From assembly GCA_022530585.1 (NCBI GenBank), contig CP092821.1:6222-70221 (forward strand): DNA of 64,000 nt, read 5' to 3'. The translations under genes were made by a program, and so were the position numbers. The stretch comes from Candidatus Nealsonbacteria bacterium DGGOD1a (lineage in GTDB: Bacteria > Patescibacteriota > Minisyncoccia > Minisyncoccales > UBA5738). This document shows positions 3,270-44,595 of the stretch, piece after piece. The notes under the pieces are model-generated. The model made no database searches and had not been told where the DNA came from. It saw only the letters and a list, made by a program, of their open reading frames with translations. Positions within the stretch are counted from its first letter, which is position 1. Every line of letters begins with the position of its first letter.

Positions 3270-3437
3270 GTAATACAAAATTTGCCGTCGCCAACGCTAT
3301 GGCAAGGCAAAGAATCCCGAAATTGGGAGTCTGGAGTTTTTTACGATGGGTAATCTGGCTGCGGCTGGGCTATACCTCGGGGAATTCCAAAAATTGGGCG
3401 CAGAACCAATTTGACTCCCGATTTCGGGATTTTTTTA
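3270..3437 (+). ncRNA. Candidate small RNA or micropeptide transcript (orphan promoter-to-terminator unit)
   Basis: A 19-bp long-range stem (3313-3331 pairs with 3413-3431, one G-U position) is followed by a T7 run. An inner hairpin aaattgg/ccaattt sits at 3391-3412. It encloses a 22-codon ORF (3346-3414, MGNLAAAGLYLGEFQKLGAEPI) with GGAG 9 nt upstream. Confidence 0.35.
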
Positions 3438-3600
3438 ATTAAAATTTAAAAATCAAAATTAAGGATATTGCTTTGAATTACGAAACAATTAAATTCAAAT
3501 GCAAAGCGTTTCGTAATTCAAAGGATATTGTATATCGTTAAAATTTAGCTTTGCCGAATTTTAACTCCAAAATTTTCCATTTTGATATTTTAATTTTGCA
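3437..3600. repeat. AT-rich inverted-repeat intergenic element (family B)
   Basis: Ends are aaaaatcaaaattaagga ... ccattttgatatttt. A perfect 16-bp palindrome ctttgaattacgaaac/gtttcgtaattcaaag lies at 3471-3486/3508-3523. The motif caaagcgtttcgtaattcaa recurs inverted at 40601-40625. Confidence 0.5.
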
Positions 3601-6585: not shown

Positions 6586-6778
6586 AATTTAAAATGTAAA
6601 AATCAAAATGAAAAATGATCCTTCGGCATTCTCAGGATCATCCTGAGTTCGGCGAATGGATGACAATGTAAAATTGCAAAATGTCGCAATACCAACATTC
6701 TAACATTTTTCCGCCAAAGGACGGATGCGCCTATGGTGCAGATTGTTATTTTGATCTTTGATTTTTACATTTTACATT
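6586..6778. repeat. MITE-like AT-rich element with terminal inverted repeats (family B)
   Basis: Left end aatttaaaatgtaaaaatcaaaatgaaaaatga; right end ttattttgatctttgatttttacattttacatt. Near-identical ends occur at 54788-54912. Confidence 0.55.
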
Positions 6779-12039: not shown

Positions 12040-12520
12040 CAGGCATGAGTATGACAACCCCTCACCGGGGAGCAAATTTGTTGAGGTTTGACCTCAAGAA
12101 TTTGTATTTTGAGGTCAATCCTCAACGAATTTGCGGTAAGGGTTGGCGCGAATTTAAAGGTCAAACCTCTCGCAAGCCGAGGATTGACCTCCAAATTCGC
12201 TATTTTTACTTCCCGGTGAGTGGTTACTGAGTATGGCAACCCCTTACTGGGGTAGCGCTTTTTGCATTTGGGGTCGTTCCCCTGCGAAGCTTTAGCGAAG
12301 CAGGGGTGCGACCCCTGCAACAGCATTCGAATTTAAATTCATAATGCTATTAAAGGGGTCTAACCCCTGCGGTTACACAGGGGTTAGACCCCAGATACAA
12401 ATACTCCAGTGAGTGATTACTGAGTATGGCAACCTCTCACCGGGATTTGTTTTTTATTGAAACTTGCGGAATGTTTTTAAAAAGGGTCCGACCCTTTTTA
12501 AAAGGGTCGGACCCTTTTGG
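12040..12520. repeat. Mosaic of at least 10 REP-like hairpins upstream of the giant gene
   Basis: ttgaGGTttgACCtcaa (12081), ttgaGGTcaatCCtcaa (12109), the composite at 12270-12318, GGGGTctaACCCC...GGGGTtagACCCC (12355-12392), and aaaaGGGTccgACCCtttttaaaaGGGTcggACCCtttt (12478-12517). Confidence 0.8.
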
Positions 12521-28241: not shown

Positions 28242-29495
28242 ATGATTCCAATAACCATTTTAGAGGAAATAACCAGAGATCAAGAGGAAAAATTCCGGCA
28301 AAGAGACAGGGGGATTACGCGGGATATTGATTTTGAAAAATATTTAAAGACGGCGCAAATAGTTGTTATTTCGGGCACGCGGCGCTGCGGAAAGTCAACG
28401 CTTTTGCGGCAATTTTATGATAATTTCGGCAGTTGCCATTATCTTAATTTTGACGATGAACGGCTTTTGGATTTTGAAGTCGGCGATTTCCAAAATTTGA
28501 TGCTGGCGTTTGGCAAAATCAACGATTCAAAAACGATTTTGCTGGACGAAATTCAAAACATCGGCAGTTGGGAGAGGTTCGCGCGCCGAATTTATGACGA
28601 GGGGTATAAGATATTCATCACCGGATCAAACGCCAAATTATTGAGTTCGGAATTGGCAACCCATTTAACCGGACGCTATTTCGGGTTGGAGCTTTTCCCG
28701 TTTTCTTTCAATGAATTTTTGAATTTTAAAAAAATTGATTGGAAAATTTTGAATTCGCGAAAAAGAATTGAGATTTTATCGGCATTCGACGCTTATTCGC
28801 AAAACGGCGGATTTCCCGAATTTTTGAAAAGCCAAGACATGGAATATCTCAAAAAAATATATGAAGATATTTTATATAAAGATATTATCGCGCGGTTTGG
28901 GATTCGCGAGGTGAAATCGTTTCGCGAGCTTGCCAATTGCGTGTTTTCAAATTTTACTCAAGAAACAAGCTATAACGGATTAAAAAATACTTTGGGGTTC
29001 AAAAGCTTGGTGACGGTAAAAAATTATGTCCATTATTTGCAGGAAAGCTATTTGGCGTTTGAGGTTTTTAAATACGATTTTTCTTTGAAAAAACAATATA
29101 TCTCCAATAAAAAAATTTTTGTCATTGACAACGGCTTGCGCAATTCCGTGGCGTTTGGATTTTCCGAAGACCGCGGCCGTTTGCTGGAGAATTTGGCATT
29201 TTTGGAATTAAAGAGGCGCGGCAAGGAAATTTATTATTTCAAAGATAAAAAAGAATGTGATTTTTTGGTCAAGAAAAAAAATAAAATTATCGGCGCCATC
29301 CAGGTTGCGTGGCGTATGGACAAGAACAATCAGGCAAGGGAATTGGAGGGGCTCTGGGGCGCGATGGAAAAATTCGGCCTCAAAGAAGGGATAATTTTGA
29401 CTAAAGATCAGGAAGATGAAAATAATGAGCGGGGCAAGGTTAAAATTATTCCGGTTTGGAAATGGCTGTTAGCCGCGGAATGGAAAAATTTTTAA
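28242..29495 (+). CDS. AAA+ ATPase, DUF4143-type (second copy)
   Basis: 417 aa with Walker A GTRRCGKST and Walker B ILLDEIQ. Same architecture as 1013-2194. Confidence 0.75.
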   Translation: MIPITILEEITRDQEEKFRQRDRGITRDIDFEKYLKTAQIVVISGTRRCGKSTLLRQFYDNFGSCHYLNFDDERLLDFEVGDFQNLMLAFGKINDSKTILLDEIQNIGSWERFARRIYDEGYKIFITGSNAKLLSSELATHLTGRYFGLELFPFSFNEFLNFKKIDWKILNSRKRIEILSAFDAYSQNGGFPEFLKSQDMEYLKKIYEDILYKDIIARFGIREVKSFRELANCVFSNFTQETSYNGLKNTLGFKSLVTVKNYVHYLQESYLAFEVFKYDFSLKKQYISNKKIFVIDNGLRNSVAFGFSEDRGRLLENLAFLELKRRGKEIYYFKDKKECDFLVKKKNKIIGAIQVAWRMDKNNQARELEGLWGAMEKFGLKEGIILTKDQEDENNERGKVKIIPVWKWLLAAEWKNF

Positions 29496-29514
29496 AAGGG
29501 TCCGACCCTTTTAA
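29490..29514. terminator. REP-like hairpin acting as likely terminator
   Basis: ttaaaagggtccgacccttttaa overlaps the ATPase stop codon. Confidence 0.6.
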
Positions 29515-35797: not shown

Positions 35798-36003
35798 GGA
35801 TTTGATTGAGCGTTGAATAATTTTAAAGGGGTCTAACCCTTCCGATTACGAAAGGGATAGACCCCGGAACCAGCAGGGGGTGGCGACGCATTTGAAGTAA
35901 GGATTTGATTGAGCGTCGAATAATTTTAAAGGGGTCTAACCCTTCCGATTACGAAAGGGATAGACCCCGGACCAGCAGGGAGTGGCGACGCATTTGAAGT
36001 GAT
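35767..36003 (+). repeat. Tandem ~102-103-nt duplication (2.3 copies) of the LamG gene terminus plus a downstream REP
   Basis: ccagcaggg(a/g)gtggc(a/g)acgcatttgaagt(a/g)a... starts at 35767, 35870 and 35972. Confidence 0.9.
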
Positions 36004-37419: not shown

Positions 37420-37506
37420 TTTGCTTTTTTTGAATTGTAAAATCGGCGGATAGGCGCTCGTTAGCCGCTCGCCGGGCCAAAGCAAGCCGCGCGAGATATT
37501 TTTGTA

Positions 37507-37524
37507 AAGGGTCCGACCCTTTCA
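37507..37524. repeat. REP-like hairpin
   Basis: aaagggtccgaccctttc. Confidence 0.7.
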
Positions 37525-39841: not shown

Positions 39842-39851
39842 TTTTATCAAT

Positions 39852-39895
39852 AAAAAACCGTCCCGAGTTTATCAAAGGGCGGTTTTTTTGTTTTT
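39852..39895 (+). terminator. Intrinsic terminator
   Basis: aaaaaaccgtccc ... gggcggttttttt followed by a T-run. Confidence 0.65.
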
Positions 39896-39896
39896 G

Positions 39897-39978
39897 TGCC
39901 CGGGGTGGGACTTGAACCCACATGAGTTACCTCGCAACATTTTAAGTGTTGTGCGTGTGCCAATTTCGCCACCCGGGC
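39897..39978 (-). tRNA. tRNA-Leu(UAA), class II
   Basis: Hand-folded cloverleaf: acceptor gcccggg/cccgggc, anticodon arm caaca-cttaaaa-tgttg, 13-nt variable arm, T-arm gtggg-ttcaagt-cccac. Confidence 0.85.
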
Positions 39979-39989
39979 GATTAAGAATG

Positions 39990-40061
39990 AGGCCGGTATG
40001 AGAATCGCACTCATGTATAACAGTTTTGCAGACTGTCGCCTTACTACTTGGCTAACCGGCC
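39990..40061 (-). tRNA. tRNA-Cys(GCA), atypical T- and D-loops
   Basis: Acceptor ggccggt/accggcc, anticodon arm acagt-ctgcaaa-actgt, 3-bp D-stem with a 13:22 mismatch. The T-loop is tgcgatt (G at position 55) and the D-loop has no GG. Confidence 0.6.
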
Positions 40062-40298
40062 GTATTTCGTTTTTAGAAGTTCTTTTTGTTGGTGTGTTTT
40101 TAAAAACATCTCTTGGTTCATTGCTTCGCTTCGCGAATTGAATTCGCGATATTCCAACAATTCCCACGGTTTATATGCTTTTGTTGATTTTACTTTTCCC
40201 TGATTGTGCAAGCTTATTCTATTTTGTAAGTTGGCCGTACTTCCGATATAAATGTCATTATTTTTTAAACTTAGCAAAATATAGGTGTAATATTTCAT
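40044..40298 (-). CDS. Small stand-alone GIY-YIG nuclease
   Basis: 84 aa with YYTYILLS...DIYIGSTANLQNRISLHN...E motifs. The last 6 codons plus the stop lie inside the 5' end of tRNA-Cys. Confidence 0.8.
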   Translation of the reverse strand: MKYYTYILLSLKNNDIYIGSTANLQNRISLHNQGKVKSTKAYKPWELLEYREFNSRSEAMNQEMFLKTHQQKELLKTKYGRLAK

Positions 40299-40333
40299 AG
40301 CTTTTTGTATGGCTATGTACTGGTTGTGTTGTT

Positions 40334-40580
40334 GAGAATCGCACTCATGTATAACAGTTTTGTCTGGCTACGCCAGATCTCGCGGAGCGATGACAGACTG
40401 TCGCCTTACTACTTGGCTAACCGGCCGTATTTCGTTTTTAGAAGTTCTTTTTGTTGGTGTGTTTTTAAAAACATCTCTTGGTTCATTGCTTCGCTTCGCG
40501 AATTGAATTCGCGATATTCCAACAATTCCCACGGTTTATATGCTTTTGTTGCTGTCGCCTTACTACTTGGCTAACCGGCC
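40334..40580 (-). pseudogene. Partial duplicates of tRNA-Cys and of the GIY-YIG 3' end
   Basis: 40334-40362 = 40000-40028; 40394-40551 = 40029-40186 (158 nt); 40552-40580 = 40033-40061. A 31-nt insert (40363-40393) splits the anticodon of the partial copy. Confidence 0.85.
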
Positions 40581-40622
40581 ATAATAATTATAATATCTTG
40601 AATTACGAAACGCTTTGTATCC

Positions 40623-40660
40623 GGGGTCTATCCCTTGCGTAATCGCAAGGGTTAGACCCC
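40623..40660. repeat. REP-like composite palindrome
   Basis: ggggtctatcccttgcgtaatcgcaagggttagacccc. Confidence 0.8.
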
Positions 40661-40779
40661 TTCAATGGTATTTGAATTTAATTGTTTCGCAATCCAAAGT
40701 ATAATAGTAAAATTTAATACAAATTCGGCGAAATTTCAATGGTTATCCTCGCGGCCGCTTAAAATTCCAAAACGCGCGG

Positions 40780-41124
40780 TTATTTATCTTTGGTTTTCAG
40801 CCCCTCCAGAATGGTTTCAACTTGCTGGGCTTGCGCCGGGTTGGCGTCGGGCATGAAGATGATTTTCGGCACCGGGCGCATACGCAATTTTTTATTCAGC
40901 GCGCTTTGGAAAAACCGGGCGTTTCTTTCCATGCTGGCGACAATCTTCGTCCTTTCGCGGTCGGGGAGCACGCTGACATAAACCTTGGCTTCCTGCAAAT
41001 TGCCGCTAGCTTTGACTTTGGTTATGGTGATCAGCGTTTCCCGGCTTACGGAAAAATCCCGGGCGATCATTTCGGCCAGAATATCTTGGATCAAGGCTTC
41101 AATTTTTTCAATCCGGTGGTCCAC
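40780..41124 (-). CDS. rbfA: Ribosome-binding factor A
   Basis: RIEKIEALIQDILAEMI...ITITKVKASGNLQEAKVYVS. GTG start. Confidence 0.85.
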   Translation of the reverse strand: MDHRIEKIEALIQDILAEMIARDFSVSRETLITITKVKASGNLQEAKVYVSVLPDRERTKIVASMERNARFFQSALNKKLRMRPVPKIIFMPDANPAQAQQVETILEGLKTKDK

Positions 41125-43230: not shown

Positions 43231-43323
43231 GGTAATTCGTAATGCAATGCGCGCTTAGCGCGCTGTTTTAATCCTTCAAAGAGGCGGGACGCTTAGCGTC
43301 CCAATTGCAACCGCTTGGCGTTG

Positions 43324-43410
43324 CGGTGGGAGGAGGAGTCGAACCTCCGATACCCTTGCGGGCATAACGGTTTTCGAAACCGTCCCATTCGGCCACTCTG
43401 GCATCCCACC
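43324..43410 (-). tRNA. tRNA-Ser(CGA), class II
   Basis: Acceptor ggtggga/tcccacc, anticodon arm acggt-ttcgaaa-accgt, long variable arm, T-arm ggagg-ttcgact-cctcc. Confidence 0.85.
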
Positions 43411-43680
43411 AACCCGCCAGAGGCGGGGAAGTTCTAAGCACAAATATCGAAATCCGAAACAAAATACAAAAATCAAAATAAAAAAACAACCGATTGCGAA
43501 ATGGGCAACAGGTTATTCATAGCATTTTTAAAGCCGGAAAGCAATTCCAACGGTTGCGATCGCTCGCCGGGATGCGTGGAGAGCCTGTCTCTCGCGTTAA
43601 CGGAAATCCTGTTTTCGGCGAAACGCCATCGGCCGCCGCGCAACAAAAAATCGGGGTTGTCCCGAAAATTGTTTTACCGG

Positions 43681-43753
43681 TGGGCGATAAGGGACTCGAA
43701 CCCCTGGCCTACTCAGTGTAAATGAGTCGCTCTACCAGCTGAGCTAATCGCCC
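43681..43753 (-). tRNA. tRNA-Val(UAC)
   Basis: gggcgat-ta-gctcagctggtagagc, anticodon arm actca-tttacac-tgagt, T-loop ttcgagt. Confidence 0.85.
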
Positions 43754-43815
43754 GAAAATGCGGTAATTTGCGCGTGCAATTTGTAGTTTGAGAAAATTTT
43801 CCGGTGAAAATTTTG

Positions 43816-43899
43816 TGCCCGGGGCGAGACTTGAACTCGCACGGGGTTGAGCCCACTAGCACCTCAAGCTAGCTCGTATACCAATTTCGACACCCGGGC
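43816..43899 (-). tRNA. tRNA-Leu(GAG), class II
   Basis: Acceptor gcccggg/cccgggc, anticodon arm ctagc-ttgaggt-gctag, long variable arm, T-arm gcgag-ttcaagt-ctcgc. Confidence 0.85.
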
Positions 43900-43975
43900 A
43901 AATCCCGTTTTAGCGGGATGGCTGATAGTTCGCGGTCACTGCTTCGCGCAAAACCGATTTAAAGCAAGAAGCTTT

Positions 43976-44356
43976 TTAGGCTTCTTGCTTTGATTCCTTG
44001 GCGGGTTTGGTTTCCGCGCGCTTTATGCGGGATCTTTTGCCTTTGGCGGTGCGCATATAATAAATTTTGGCGCGGCGGACTTTGCCGATCTTGATCACCT
44101 CAATCTTGTCGATGATCGGCGAGTGGAGCGGGAATATCTTTTCCACGCCCACGCCCGAAGCGATTTTGCGCACCGTGATGGCCGCGCCGGTTTCGTTTCC
44201 GTGTTTGCGGCACATTACCAGGCCTTCGAACATTTGGATTTTATCCTTATCCTTGTCTTTATATTTTTGGTAGACGCGCACCGTGTCTCCCGCTTTTATC
44301 ACCGGCAAATTTTGCGATTTGCCGAGTTGTGCGAATTCTGCGATTTGCTTTTCCAT
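43976..44356 (-). CDS. rplS: 50S ribosomal protein L19
   Basis: KAGDTVRVYQKY...FEGLVMCRKHG...ITVRKIASGVGVEKIFPLHSP. Confidence 0.9.
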   Translation of the reverse strand: MEKQIAEFAQLGKSQNLPVIKAGDTVRVYQKYKDKDKDKIQMFEGLVMCRKHGNETGAAITVRKIASGVGVEKIFPLHSPIIDKIEVIKIGKVRRAKIYYMRTAKGKRSRIKRAETKPAKESKQEA

Positions 44357-44433
44357 AATGTTGTTTGTTCTAAAATTGGATTTTGGTCTGACAAGTGATT
44401 ACTTTAAACTAAAATTGCTTAAAAGTCAAAGGG

Positions 44434-44505
44434 TGGGCAGTACAGGATTTGAACCTGTGACCCCTACTATGTCAAAGTAGTGCGCTACCCCTGCGCCAAC
44501 TGCCC
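44434..44505 (-). tRNA. tRNA-Val(GAC)
   Basis: Acceptor gggcagt/actgccc, anticodon arm ctact-ttgacat-agtag, T-arm acagg-ttcaaat-cctgt. Confidence 0.85.
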
Positions 44506-44521
44506 GTATTGATTTTATCTG

Positions 44522-44595
44522 TGCGCGTGGATGGATTCGAACCATCTACCTATGACTTATAAGGTCATTGCTCTAACCGAGTGAGCTACACGCGC
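44522..44595 (-). tRNA. tRNA-Ile(UAU)
   Basis: Acceptor gcgcgtg/cacgcgc, D-arm gctc-actcggtta-gagc, anticodon arm atgac-cttataa-gtcat, T-arm gatgg-ttcgaat-ccatc. Confidence 0.8.

Follow-up and report, generated by a model that had tools for sequence, protein, structure and literature searches.

A GIY-YIG gene, a double-hairpin module and duplicated tRNA-Cys segments in a Candidatus Nealsonbacteria genome: a possible homing-like cassette in tRNA genes

The tRNA-Cys locus and its GIY-YIG gene

In a stretch of 64,000 nucleotides (nt) from Candidatus Nealsonbacteria bacterium DGGOD1a (contig CP092821.1, positions 6,222 to 70,221; called the window here and numbered from its first letter), we analysed a tRNA-Cys locus on the minus strand (40580-39990), in which pieces of the tRNA alternate with pieces of a small open reading frame (ORF) for a GIY-YIG nuclease. 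An earlier note on this DNA had described a five-part order, and all five parts were recovered from the sequence and with a repeat finder. The locus begins with tRNA-Cys nt 1-29 (40552-40580; 29/29 identical to the intact tRNA), which we interpret as the 5'-half remnant of a first, upstream unit at the native tRNA position. It is followed by a partial copy of the ORF, nt 113-237 (40427-40551), which tblastn aligns with amino acids (aa) 34-84. Next come tRNA nt 1-33 (40394-40426, the 5' half of 'copy A', 33/33 identical), ending at anticodon base G34, and a 31-nt insert, module M (40363-40393), placed exactly between G34 and C35. The interrupted copy continues with tRNA nt 34-63 (40333-40362, 30/30 identical) and lacks the 3' acceptor strand. 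A 34-nt spacer (40299-40332) leads to the intact ORF of 84 aa (40044-40298), whose last 18 nt, the final six codons with the stop, are nt 1-18 of the complete tRNA-Cys(GCA) (39990-40061). The tRNA-Leu(TAA) (39896-39978), the conserved downstream partner of tRNA-Cys in the phylum, comes 10 nt later, and all of these genes and gene fragments lie on the minus strand.

The repeat finder returned a 158-nt direct repeat (40029-40186 and 40394-40551) and a 30-nt direct repeat (39999-40028 and 40333-40362), both 100% identical, as well as a third copy of the tRNA-Cys 5' end at 40552-40583. Chance is excluded as a source of these repeats. ARAGORN and Rfam call a single tRNA-Cys(GCA), at 39989/39990-40061 on the minus strand, so that the locus holds one complete copy, as had been noted. 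This copy has a cloverleaf with the anticodon GCA, scores 63.2 bits with RF00005 (threshold 29) and is identical at 71 of 72 positions to the tRNA-Cys of L138, a relative with an empty site (relatives and their loci are given L numbers).

The arrangement can be derived in two steps. We defined a unit U of 365 nt (40426-40062, minus strand), consisting of tRNA nt 1-33, the 31-nt insert, tRNA nt 34-63, the 34-nt spacer and ORF nt 1-237. Two such units in tandem followed by tRNA-Cys, minus one deletion of 211 nt, reproduce the 591-nt stretch with every base matching. The deletion begins in the first unit, at nt 30 of its tRNA 5' half, and reaches as far as ORF nt 112; it has a single possible position and no microhomology, and its left edge lies 4 nt before the M of the first unit; the partial ORF copy is what it left of that unit. 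Hence the 'nested duplications', which the earlier note had attributed to repeated insertion, reduce to one tandem duplication and one deletion, and the lack of any substitution in the duplicated blocks implies that both were recent.

At gathering thresholds, Rfam reports only tRNAs in the window and no other family, and the interrupted tRNA copy folds as RNA with the mean energy of its shuffles (z = 0.00). The first tRNA fragment (40552-40580) is preceded, at a distance of 8 nt, by a TATAAT hexamer; we do not claim it as a promoter, as the counts of a promoter and terminator scan over 39850-40800 were not above those in shuffles. The tRNA had been described as odd on account of its T-loop TGC and its D-loop AG in place of GG. 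Both features are present, but they are not unusual: among 99 distinct tRNA-Cys sequences, 59 combine TTC with GG and 24 combine TGC with AG, with no mixed cases among those parsed. In the second type, to which the window tRNA belongs, G18:U55 is replaced by A18:G55, and on this comparison the oddities are a lineage-typical tertiary covariation that is normal for part of the phylum.

The ORF encodes a GIY-YIG domain (PF01541, E 1.7e-17), and its homologues are Patescibacteria proteins, mostly of 80-85 aa. In 42 homologues, the residues Y6, Y17, G19, R27 and E63 are invariant and H31 is conserved in at least 90%. The nearest solved structures are the UPF0213 proteins BH0048 and EF2693, followed by SLX1 nuclease domains (profile against PDB: 1zg2 1.6e-9, 1ywl 1.2e-7, SLX1 2.5e-5), whereas the match of the profile to I-TevI covers the first 33 residues only (9e-4). 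TIGR01453 reached 22 bits with the protein, at a cut-off of 56. Because of these nearest structures and the short I-TevI match, the protein is, as judged from its sequence, a domain-only nuclease of Slx1/UPF0213 type and not an I-TevI/Seg-type homing endonuclease.

Strong purifying selection acts on the ORF. Between the window and L002, the closest genome among the matches listed (RbfA 92%; labelled Minisyncoccales), the nonsynonymous divergence (dN) is 0.042 and the synonymous divergence (dS) 0.707, a ratio of ~0.06. With a dS of 0.71, taken from only ~55 synonymous sites, the ORF is about twice as diverged at such sites as the flanking genes (rbfA 0.35, infB 0.30, a 189-aa gene 0.24). The GIY-YIG gene is the sole ORF of the unit, and no integrase was found at the locus. 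Moreover, the PADLOC defence models gave no meaningful match (only E ~0.007 to PDC-S14, with no stretch passing alone), and the family is essentially absent from viral contigs, where one weak match leaves a phage vector unsupported.

The ORF ends within the tRNA, its stop codon being tRNA nt 16-18 (shared stretch at window 40044-40061), and an overlap of ORF and tRNA by 7-22 nt was seen in ~40 loci. RNase P cutting at tRNA +1 would consequently leave a non-stop mRNA, and this removal of the stop codon could serve as a built-in limit on nuclease expression.

Recurrence of the arrangement and the double hairpin M

A pattern scan of a genome collection returned at least 561 relatives, and we examined the best 80 loci. 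Their common layout is a tRNA 5' half, M and a few tRNA nt, then the 84-aa GIY-YIG ORF and then an intact tRNA. The ORF stop is located between -22 and +16 nt from tRNA +1 in 64 of the 80 loci, and the tRNA abutted there is tRNA-Cys(GCA) in 59, tRNA-Ser in 4 and tRNA-Leu(GAG) in 1. The suggestion that the cassette is directed at tRNA genes is thus borne out, as the same layout is found at all three tRNAs and in many genomes. Cys-linked loci usually have tRNA-Leu(TAA) next, and the order ORF, tRNA-Cys, tRNA-Leu is conserved over many Patescibacteria classes. Most homologues end in KY-G-x-V/L-A-K-(W/R/stop), which is the translated tRNA 5' end, and several loci carry a second, diverged ORF copy at another tRNA.

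In most loci a second tRNA 5' half is found ~40-90 nt upstream of the ORF start, at Ser-linked as well as at Cys-linked genes, and ends exactly at the first anticodon base. M follows, then a tRNA continuation (CAAAAC...) and then the start codon. The direct repeats of the 5' half are often 100% identical within a locus, though the tRNAs differ between loci. The earlier proposal of a cassette that brings along the 5' segment of a tRNA and restores the gene agrees with the duplicated 5' half together with the intact tRNA after the ORF. A covariance model of M (R1) places the module upstream of the ORF, no more than ~120 nt from its start, in 58 of the 80 loci; 57 of these 58 belong to the 64 loci in which the ORF abuts the downstream tRNA. 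In the core of the cassette, the ORF follows M within ~10-65 nt.

The 31-nt insert of the window consists of two adjacent hairpins, tc(a)tcgc-tcc-gcgaga and tctggc-gta-gccaga. The earlier note had placed it correctly, but had seen only one hairpin and had treated it as incidental. In fact it belongs to a family of modules made of two tandem 15-nt hairpins (TCTSSS-NNN-SSSAGA twice), the window copy having one bulged A. R1 scores it with 34.0 bits (E ~1e-6) on the minus strand and 32.4 bits on the plus strand, and it is the sole strong match in the 64 kb with filters off. A strict scan found ~60 modules in the 80 loci and almost none in shuffles; it replaced, together with the covariance model, a hairpin scan allowing G-T pairs, which had given hundreds of chance matches. 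Nearly all copies of M lie within tRNA-derived sequence, at anticodon 34/35, in the D-arm (between GTAGC and CAAGTGG) or in the T-loop. The insertion is precise and without target duplication, and in the D-arm it falls in the stem, not in the loop.

The stems of M covary. Over 56 distinct sequences, 98.4% of cells are paired, compared with 80% in shuffles, and double-sided changes number 103 versus 32, none of 500 shuffles being as good; slid controls gave 12-49%. The four internal pairs of each stem were outside the selection pattern with which the modules had been collected. In L002, for example, the second hairpin is a compensatory variant, with tcccgc/gcggga in place of tctggc/gccaga. Loop 1 is TNC in 39 of the 56 sequences and loop 2 is GNA in 40, and the minority loops (GNA/TNC, AGA/TCT) are complementary in type in the same way. 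When closed by C:G, a GNA triloop gives a very stable mini-hairpin in DNA. The pattern reads alike on either strand about a central AGA/TCT junction, and R1 scores both strands almost equally. Such symmetry is expected for duplex or cruciform DNA recognised by a symmetric protein, not for an RNA element. M is the most conserved non-coding feature of the cassette system. Two structural ideas were discarded: kissing-loop pairing, as the two loops are complementary in some variants only, and an archaeal-type bulge-helix-bulge intron, whose 4-bp exon helix is present with some variants of the second hairpin only and which does not suit insertion in the D-arm stem.

We also searched metagenome sequence in the reverse direction and without protein information, using the pattern GGTCTG-TCT-N9-AGATCT-N9-AGA-CAAAAC. 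This M-only search yielded 55 loci, and 43 of them have a GIY match on the same locus, in most cases adjoining M. Four of the 12 others are cut by contig ends. A further six have an intact tRNA-Cys and an M-capped fragment but no intact ORF, L086 keeping a remnant of the ORF C-terminus. The last two are solo anticodon-arm copies with M elsewhere in the genome, L120 being on the same contig as the occupied L118. None of the M-bearing tRNA copies is complete or is the sole tRNA-Cys of its locus, so that M is not an intron of a working gene.

Solo copies of M also occur away from tRNA genes, some of them with a few anticodon-arm nt (L088:3990-4050, L120:4280-4340, L021:1044-1073 and 3419-3448, L017:1599-1628). 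Two are flanked by a short repeat, aaaattg on one side and aaaattgg on the other, which may have arisen by target duplication or by chance. Double hairpins of another kind, of the type TCCGCC-AAG-GGCGGA TCCGCC-TCT-GGCGGA, are intergenic and outside tRNA context (window 6710-6740, weak, R1 E 0.027; L006:3093-3122, L013:2046-2075, L026:243-272, L073:2080-2109).

A mirror form was seen in Ignavibacteria, Chlorobi, Bacteroidetes and relatives (FCB group). Here an intact tRNA (Ser, Cys or Asn) comes first and the GIY-YIG ORF begins right after its 3' end. Fragments of the tRNA follow the ORF and are interrupted near the anticodon (36/37 in ARAGORN numbering, tRNA-Ser(TGA)) by a different palindrome of ~35 nt, e.g. 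ctcacagagtcctttggattcgcagaatcctttgg. Such loci are L065:1640-2900, where three interrupted copies of tRNA-Ser stand in tandem, one every 249 nt, and L058, L069, L073, L074, L077 and L080.

Two other features of the window were recorded. A dispersed intergenic palindrome family, AAGGGTCnGACCCTT, has nine sites in it (17 strand matches versus 0.02 expected), including 12353-12517, 27417-27433, 29495-29511, 35825-35945, 37506-37522 and 40646-40662; a second hairpin, ccttgcgattacgcaagg, often accompanies it, and one copy of the palindrome lies just upstream of the scrambled tRNA-Cys locus. Five tRNA genes on the same strand (Ser-CGA, Val-TAC, Leu-GAG, Val-GAC, Ile-TAT) at 43323-44595 have neither a GIY-YIG ORF nor M.

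Empty sites, foreign tRNA alleles and turnover

The earlier note had proposed comparing empty with occupied sites. Using RbfA homologues of 69-80% identity, we found relatives whose contigs share the DUF4446-IF2-RbfA synteny. L138 and L140/L141 provide clean empty sites, with an intact tRNA-Cys directly after rbfA and without ORF or M, whereas the window and L002 are occupied within the same synteny from IF2-RbfA to tRNA-Leu. Moreover, the sequence upstream of the L138 tRNA-Cys matches that upstream of the 5'-half copy in L002. L137 has no tRNA-Cys at the position after rbfA, and L139 has a decayed one.

Several occupied loci contain more than one tRNA-Cys allele. L002 has a lineage-typical tRNA 5' half upstream, while its ORF-linked tRNA-Cys differs at ~8 positions, with three base pairs compensated. 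In L021 the outer tRNA halves form a perfect acceptor stem around the cassette (GGTGCAG/CTGCACC), which itself brings a tRNA with GGCGCGA/TCGCGCC, and in L006, L056 and L063, too, the outer halves pair with one another rather than with the inner tRNA. Another eight loci have a downstream fragment that fits neither of the two, the upstream copy or the inner tRNA. A simple model of a resident gene split in two was therefore given up: it fits L006, L021, L056 and L063, but many downstream fragments are third alleles. Downstream fragments composed of spacer with GGTCTG, M and tRNA nt 35-72 also form tandem stacks of two or three with differing 3' halves.

In a neighbour-joining tree of weak resolution, built on ~78 residues, the ORFs linked to tRNA-Ser(GCT) are nested in the Cys-linked clade and the basal clades mix Cys, Ser and Leu. 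Taken together, the empty sites, the mosaic alleles and the nested Ser-linked ORFs suggest gain, loss, replacement and target switching, and on these sequence comparisons the cassette does not look like a fixed housekeeping arrangement. The earlier note had reckoned with the family being a conserved housekeeping neighbour of tRNA genes; its adjacency to tRNA-Cys is indeed very widespread, yet it is polymorphic and mosaic. Furthermore, three independent deletions, in the window, L110 and L086, each have an endpoint that coincides with M or the anticodon or lies close to it. In L110:1440-2010, a relative of L006, the deletion runs from GIY codon ~54 to tRNA nt ~36 and no intact tRNA-Cys is left at the locus; the alternatives are a further copy elsewhere and a defective variant within the population.

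Endonuclease-type insertions have a hot spot in the tRNA-Cys/tRNA-Leu(TAA) pair. In several relatives, including empty-site ones, the two tRNAs are separated by a gene for a free-standing HNH endonuclease (PHROG HNH E 9e-43; PF01844; L138:2536-3066, L139:2536-3009, also L013 and L035). In the empty-site relative L140, a large serine recombinase of 533 aa (Resolvase/Recombinase/Zn_ribbon_recom; L140:2571-4172) is encoded on the opposite strand immediately after tRNA-Leu(TAA), which suggests that this tRNA cluster also serves another kind of integrative element there.

Interpretation and relation to known systems

Overall, we consider it reasonably probable that the locus holds a selfish, homing-like cassette which resides in tRNA genes and is rearranged via its own tRNA-derived repeats. 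Its core would be the dyad-symmetric M and the 84-aa SLX1/UPF0213-type GIY-YIG gene, with the ORF end abutting +1 of an intact tRNA. Compared with an empty tRNA-Cys, an occupied site would read tRNA nt 1-34, M, tRNA nt 35 to 4x or 63, the ORF and tRNA nt 1-72. The resident tRNA 5' half would be left upstream and capped by M, and a complete tRNA would be kept or brought in beside the ORF, at no loss to the host. Transcription of the ORF probably starts from the tRNA promoter. The flanking tRNA-derived direct repeats would permit clean loss, Campbell-type gain from a circular or transformed copy, and unequal crossing-over. In the window, one unequal crossover may have produced two tandem 365-nt units, before the 211-nt deletion removed the middle.

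The nuclease, probably as a dimer, may act on extruded M or on anticodon DNA and make the nicks or breaks that start recombination. This role is suggested by the cruciform-prone dyad beside the gene, the SLX1-type fold family, the three deletions with one end at or close to M or the anticodon, and the precedent of SegB discussed below. Spread between genomes might proceed through the conserved tRNA-Cys/tRNA-Leu homology after DNA uptake. What the earlier note had observed is confirmed, and its interpretation is partly supported: the homing-endonuclease or integrative-element behaviour that it proposed agrees with the occupied and empty alleles and the restored tRNA, but the protein is not of I-TevI/Seg type and no integrase accompanies it.

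Several points weigh against such a cassette. The protein consists of the catalytic domain alone, has no DNA-binding module and has no known cleavage activity or target, and the near absence of the family from viral contigs offers no candidate vector. If the target were tRNA anticodon DNA, the regenerated intact tRNA would stay cleavable. The model explains neither the entry of M into a naive tRNA nor its arrival at the D-arm and T-loop. The near-universal tRNA-Cys/tRNA-Leu position within one phylum also fits long vertical inheritance with occasional loss. Finally, the window tandem comes from one metagenome assembly, the raised dS of the ORF from few sites and the tree from a short protein.

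An alternative is a host gene with a tRNA-related housekeeping role, e.g. in tRNA or DNA quality control, that is co-transcribed with tRNA-Cys; the interrupted fragment and M would then be a structured leader or regulatory element and the duplications incidental. The conserved gene order across many classes, the purifying selection on the ORF and the site of M just upstream of the start codon are in line with this, and in other cases a standalone Slx1-like GIY-YIG domain of prokaryotes is joined to a tRNA methyltransferase by fusion or linkage (PMC1564403). Yet we regard it as quite unlikely, given that in close relatives the gene is missing from a clean tRNA-Cys site, that paralogues at other tRNAs have the matching tRNA's own 5' half upstream, and that stacked fragments without ORF, solo copies of M and two or three different tRNA-Cys alleles in one locus occur. 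Dyad symmetry on both strands would also be unexpected for an RNA leader, and as RNA the interrupted tRNA folds no better than shuffles. It is unlikely as well that the insertion is old and now inert, with host recombination or replication slippage between tRNA-derived repeats producing the rearrangements, the window tandem and deletion included, the nuclease uninvolved and M only a stable palindrome. The window itself needs no more than repeats and one illegitimate deletion, and no nuclease activity is on record for the protein; against this stand the retention of every catalytic residue at a dN/dS of ~0.06, the covarying hairpins that remain beside the ORF over 56 variants, the foreign alleles and target switching, which indicate continuing movement, and the three independent deletions ending at or near M or the anticodon.

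The precise insertion of M into tRNA sequence without target duplication, at 34/35, in the D-arm and in the T-loop, could also point to an intron-like or processing element in tRNA precursors whose RNA is processed by the GIY-YIG protein, in a phylum that is rich in tRNA introns (PMC13011429). We hold this to be very improbable: all M-bearing copies observed are truncated and unable to build an acceptor stem, at no locus is a complete tRNA with M the sole tRNA-Cys, the D-arm insertion is within a stem, M has no ribozyme and no Rfam match, and the strand-symmetric loop pattern points to DNA. Still less credible is an assembly artefact of the metagenome-assembled genome. The exact arrangement is found in one assembly only and the 158-nt repeats are near short-read length, but tandem repeats are more often collapsed than created by assemblers, the junction of tRNA nt 29 with ORF nt 113 is unique sequence, and similar partial copies, stacks and deletions are present in dozens of independent assemblies.

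Beyond the selfish, homing-like cassette that we favour, a bolder proposal can be made, which we offer tentatively and consider doubtful. The system might represent a previously unrecognised class of bacterial mobile element, in which a minimal SLX1-like GIY-YIG nuclease, probably a dimer, acts on the dyad-symmetric M extruded in the tRNA anticodon arm and thereby causes a cassette of ~330 nt to be inserted, replaced and amplified. The cassette would bring or regenerate the tRNA and leave M-capped halves of earlier alleles, M and the tRNA-half derivatives without ORF would be miniature non-autonomous elements, and the FCB group would have a mirror form.

The cassette system is widespread and structured, and it is apparently undescribed. 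If our reading is correct, it would give the standalone bacterial Slx1-like GIY-YIG family its first concrete biological context, namely a DNA substrate (M) and a genomic behaviour. The cassette would be among the smallest apparently autonomous elements (~330 nt), evading counter-selection by rebuilding the essential gene that it invades. It would account for the recurrent tRNA-Cys fragments and the turnover of tRNA genes in Patescibacteria, whose genomes are minimal, and by exchanging a single-copy tRNA for a foreign allele it would open a direct way to alter the translation apparatus horizontally. Fragments interrupted by M give rise to mis-annotated tRNAs, and the pair of M and nuclease is a testable candidate for a structure-directed DNA-cutting tool.

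A literature search, which was not exhaustive, found no published description of an architecture made of GIY-YIG gene, M and tRNA, and several known systems share part of it. Integrative elements that target tRNA genes encode an integrase and duplicate the 3' part of the tRNA. As in such prophages and islands, the carried tRNA part of the cassette regenerates an intact gene, and a partial copy is left as a direct repeat at the other end. The cassette unit differs in having no tyrosine or serine integrase gene, in its length of only ~330-365 nt, in its breakpoint at the anticodon (34/35), and in the duplication of the 5' half in Patescibacteria, the mirror form of the FCB group duplicating the 3' half. 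IS200/IS605, PATE and REP/RAYT elements also have short palindromic hairpins as a conserved non-coding feature, insert precisely without target duplication, and have ORF-less miniature derivatives that gather near a single protein gene. However, IS200/IS605 and REP/RAYT employ HUH (Y1) transposases, whereas the sole protein of the cassette is a GIY-YIG nuclease and no TnpA is present; moreover, the two hairpins of M abut each other instead of flanking cargo, and copies of M are almost confined to tRNA-derived sequence.

The best sequence matches among solved structures are UPF0213 (YhbQ-type) and SLX1 proteins, and the cassette protein is likewise a minimal domain without extra modules. SLX1 is a structure-specific nuclease on branched DNA, and an activity of this kind would suit an extruded double hairpin. 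In a phylogenomic survey of GIY-YIG proteins, the standalone prokaryotic Slx1-like members form a family without an assigned role, with fusions or links to COG4123 methyltransferases and a TrmH-like tRNA methyltransferase, and neither adjacency to tRNA genes nor an M-like module was reported (PMC1564403). Group I introns with homing endonucleases resemble the cassette in their insertion into the anticodon loop of tRNA genes and are frequent in Patescibacteria (PMC13011429), but the cassette has no ribozyme according to Rfam, its interrupted tRNA copy is a truncated pseudogene, and tRNA function is kept by a second, intact tRNA and not by splicing. A study from 2025 lists GIY-YIG genes among those that Patescibacteria donate horizontally (PMC12455944). 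In the papers that our search covered on the UPF0213/Slx1-like family, we did not find adjacency to tRNA genes, an M-like module or mobility described.

The closest precedent for its behaviour comes from phages T4 and T6. SegB belongs to the I-TevI/Seg lineage and carries a DNA-binding domain. The cassette protein, by comparison, is an 84-aa catalytic domain of the Slx1/UPF0213 lineage, without the C-terminal DNA-binding domain of classical I-TevI/Seg homing endonucleases, and the cassette is found in Patescibacteria chromosomes and hardly at all in viral contigs. It further differs in having M, the precise abutment of the ORF to tRNA +1 and the duplicated tRNA 5' half. As in homing-type elements, nevertheless, occupied and empty alleles of the same site coexist in close relatives. 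It has been shown that SegB, a GIY-YIG endonuclease encoded in a tRNA cluster, drives preferential inheritance and segmental amplification (PMC2330249, PMC13096335). Both systems thus place a GIY-YIG gene with presence/absence polymorphism among tRNA genes, and SegB is linked to the non-reciprocal transfer and tandem amplification of a tRNA-containing segment (PMC2330249, PMC13096335).

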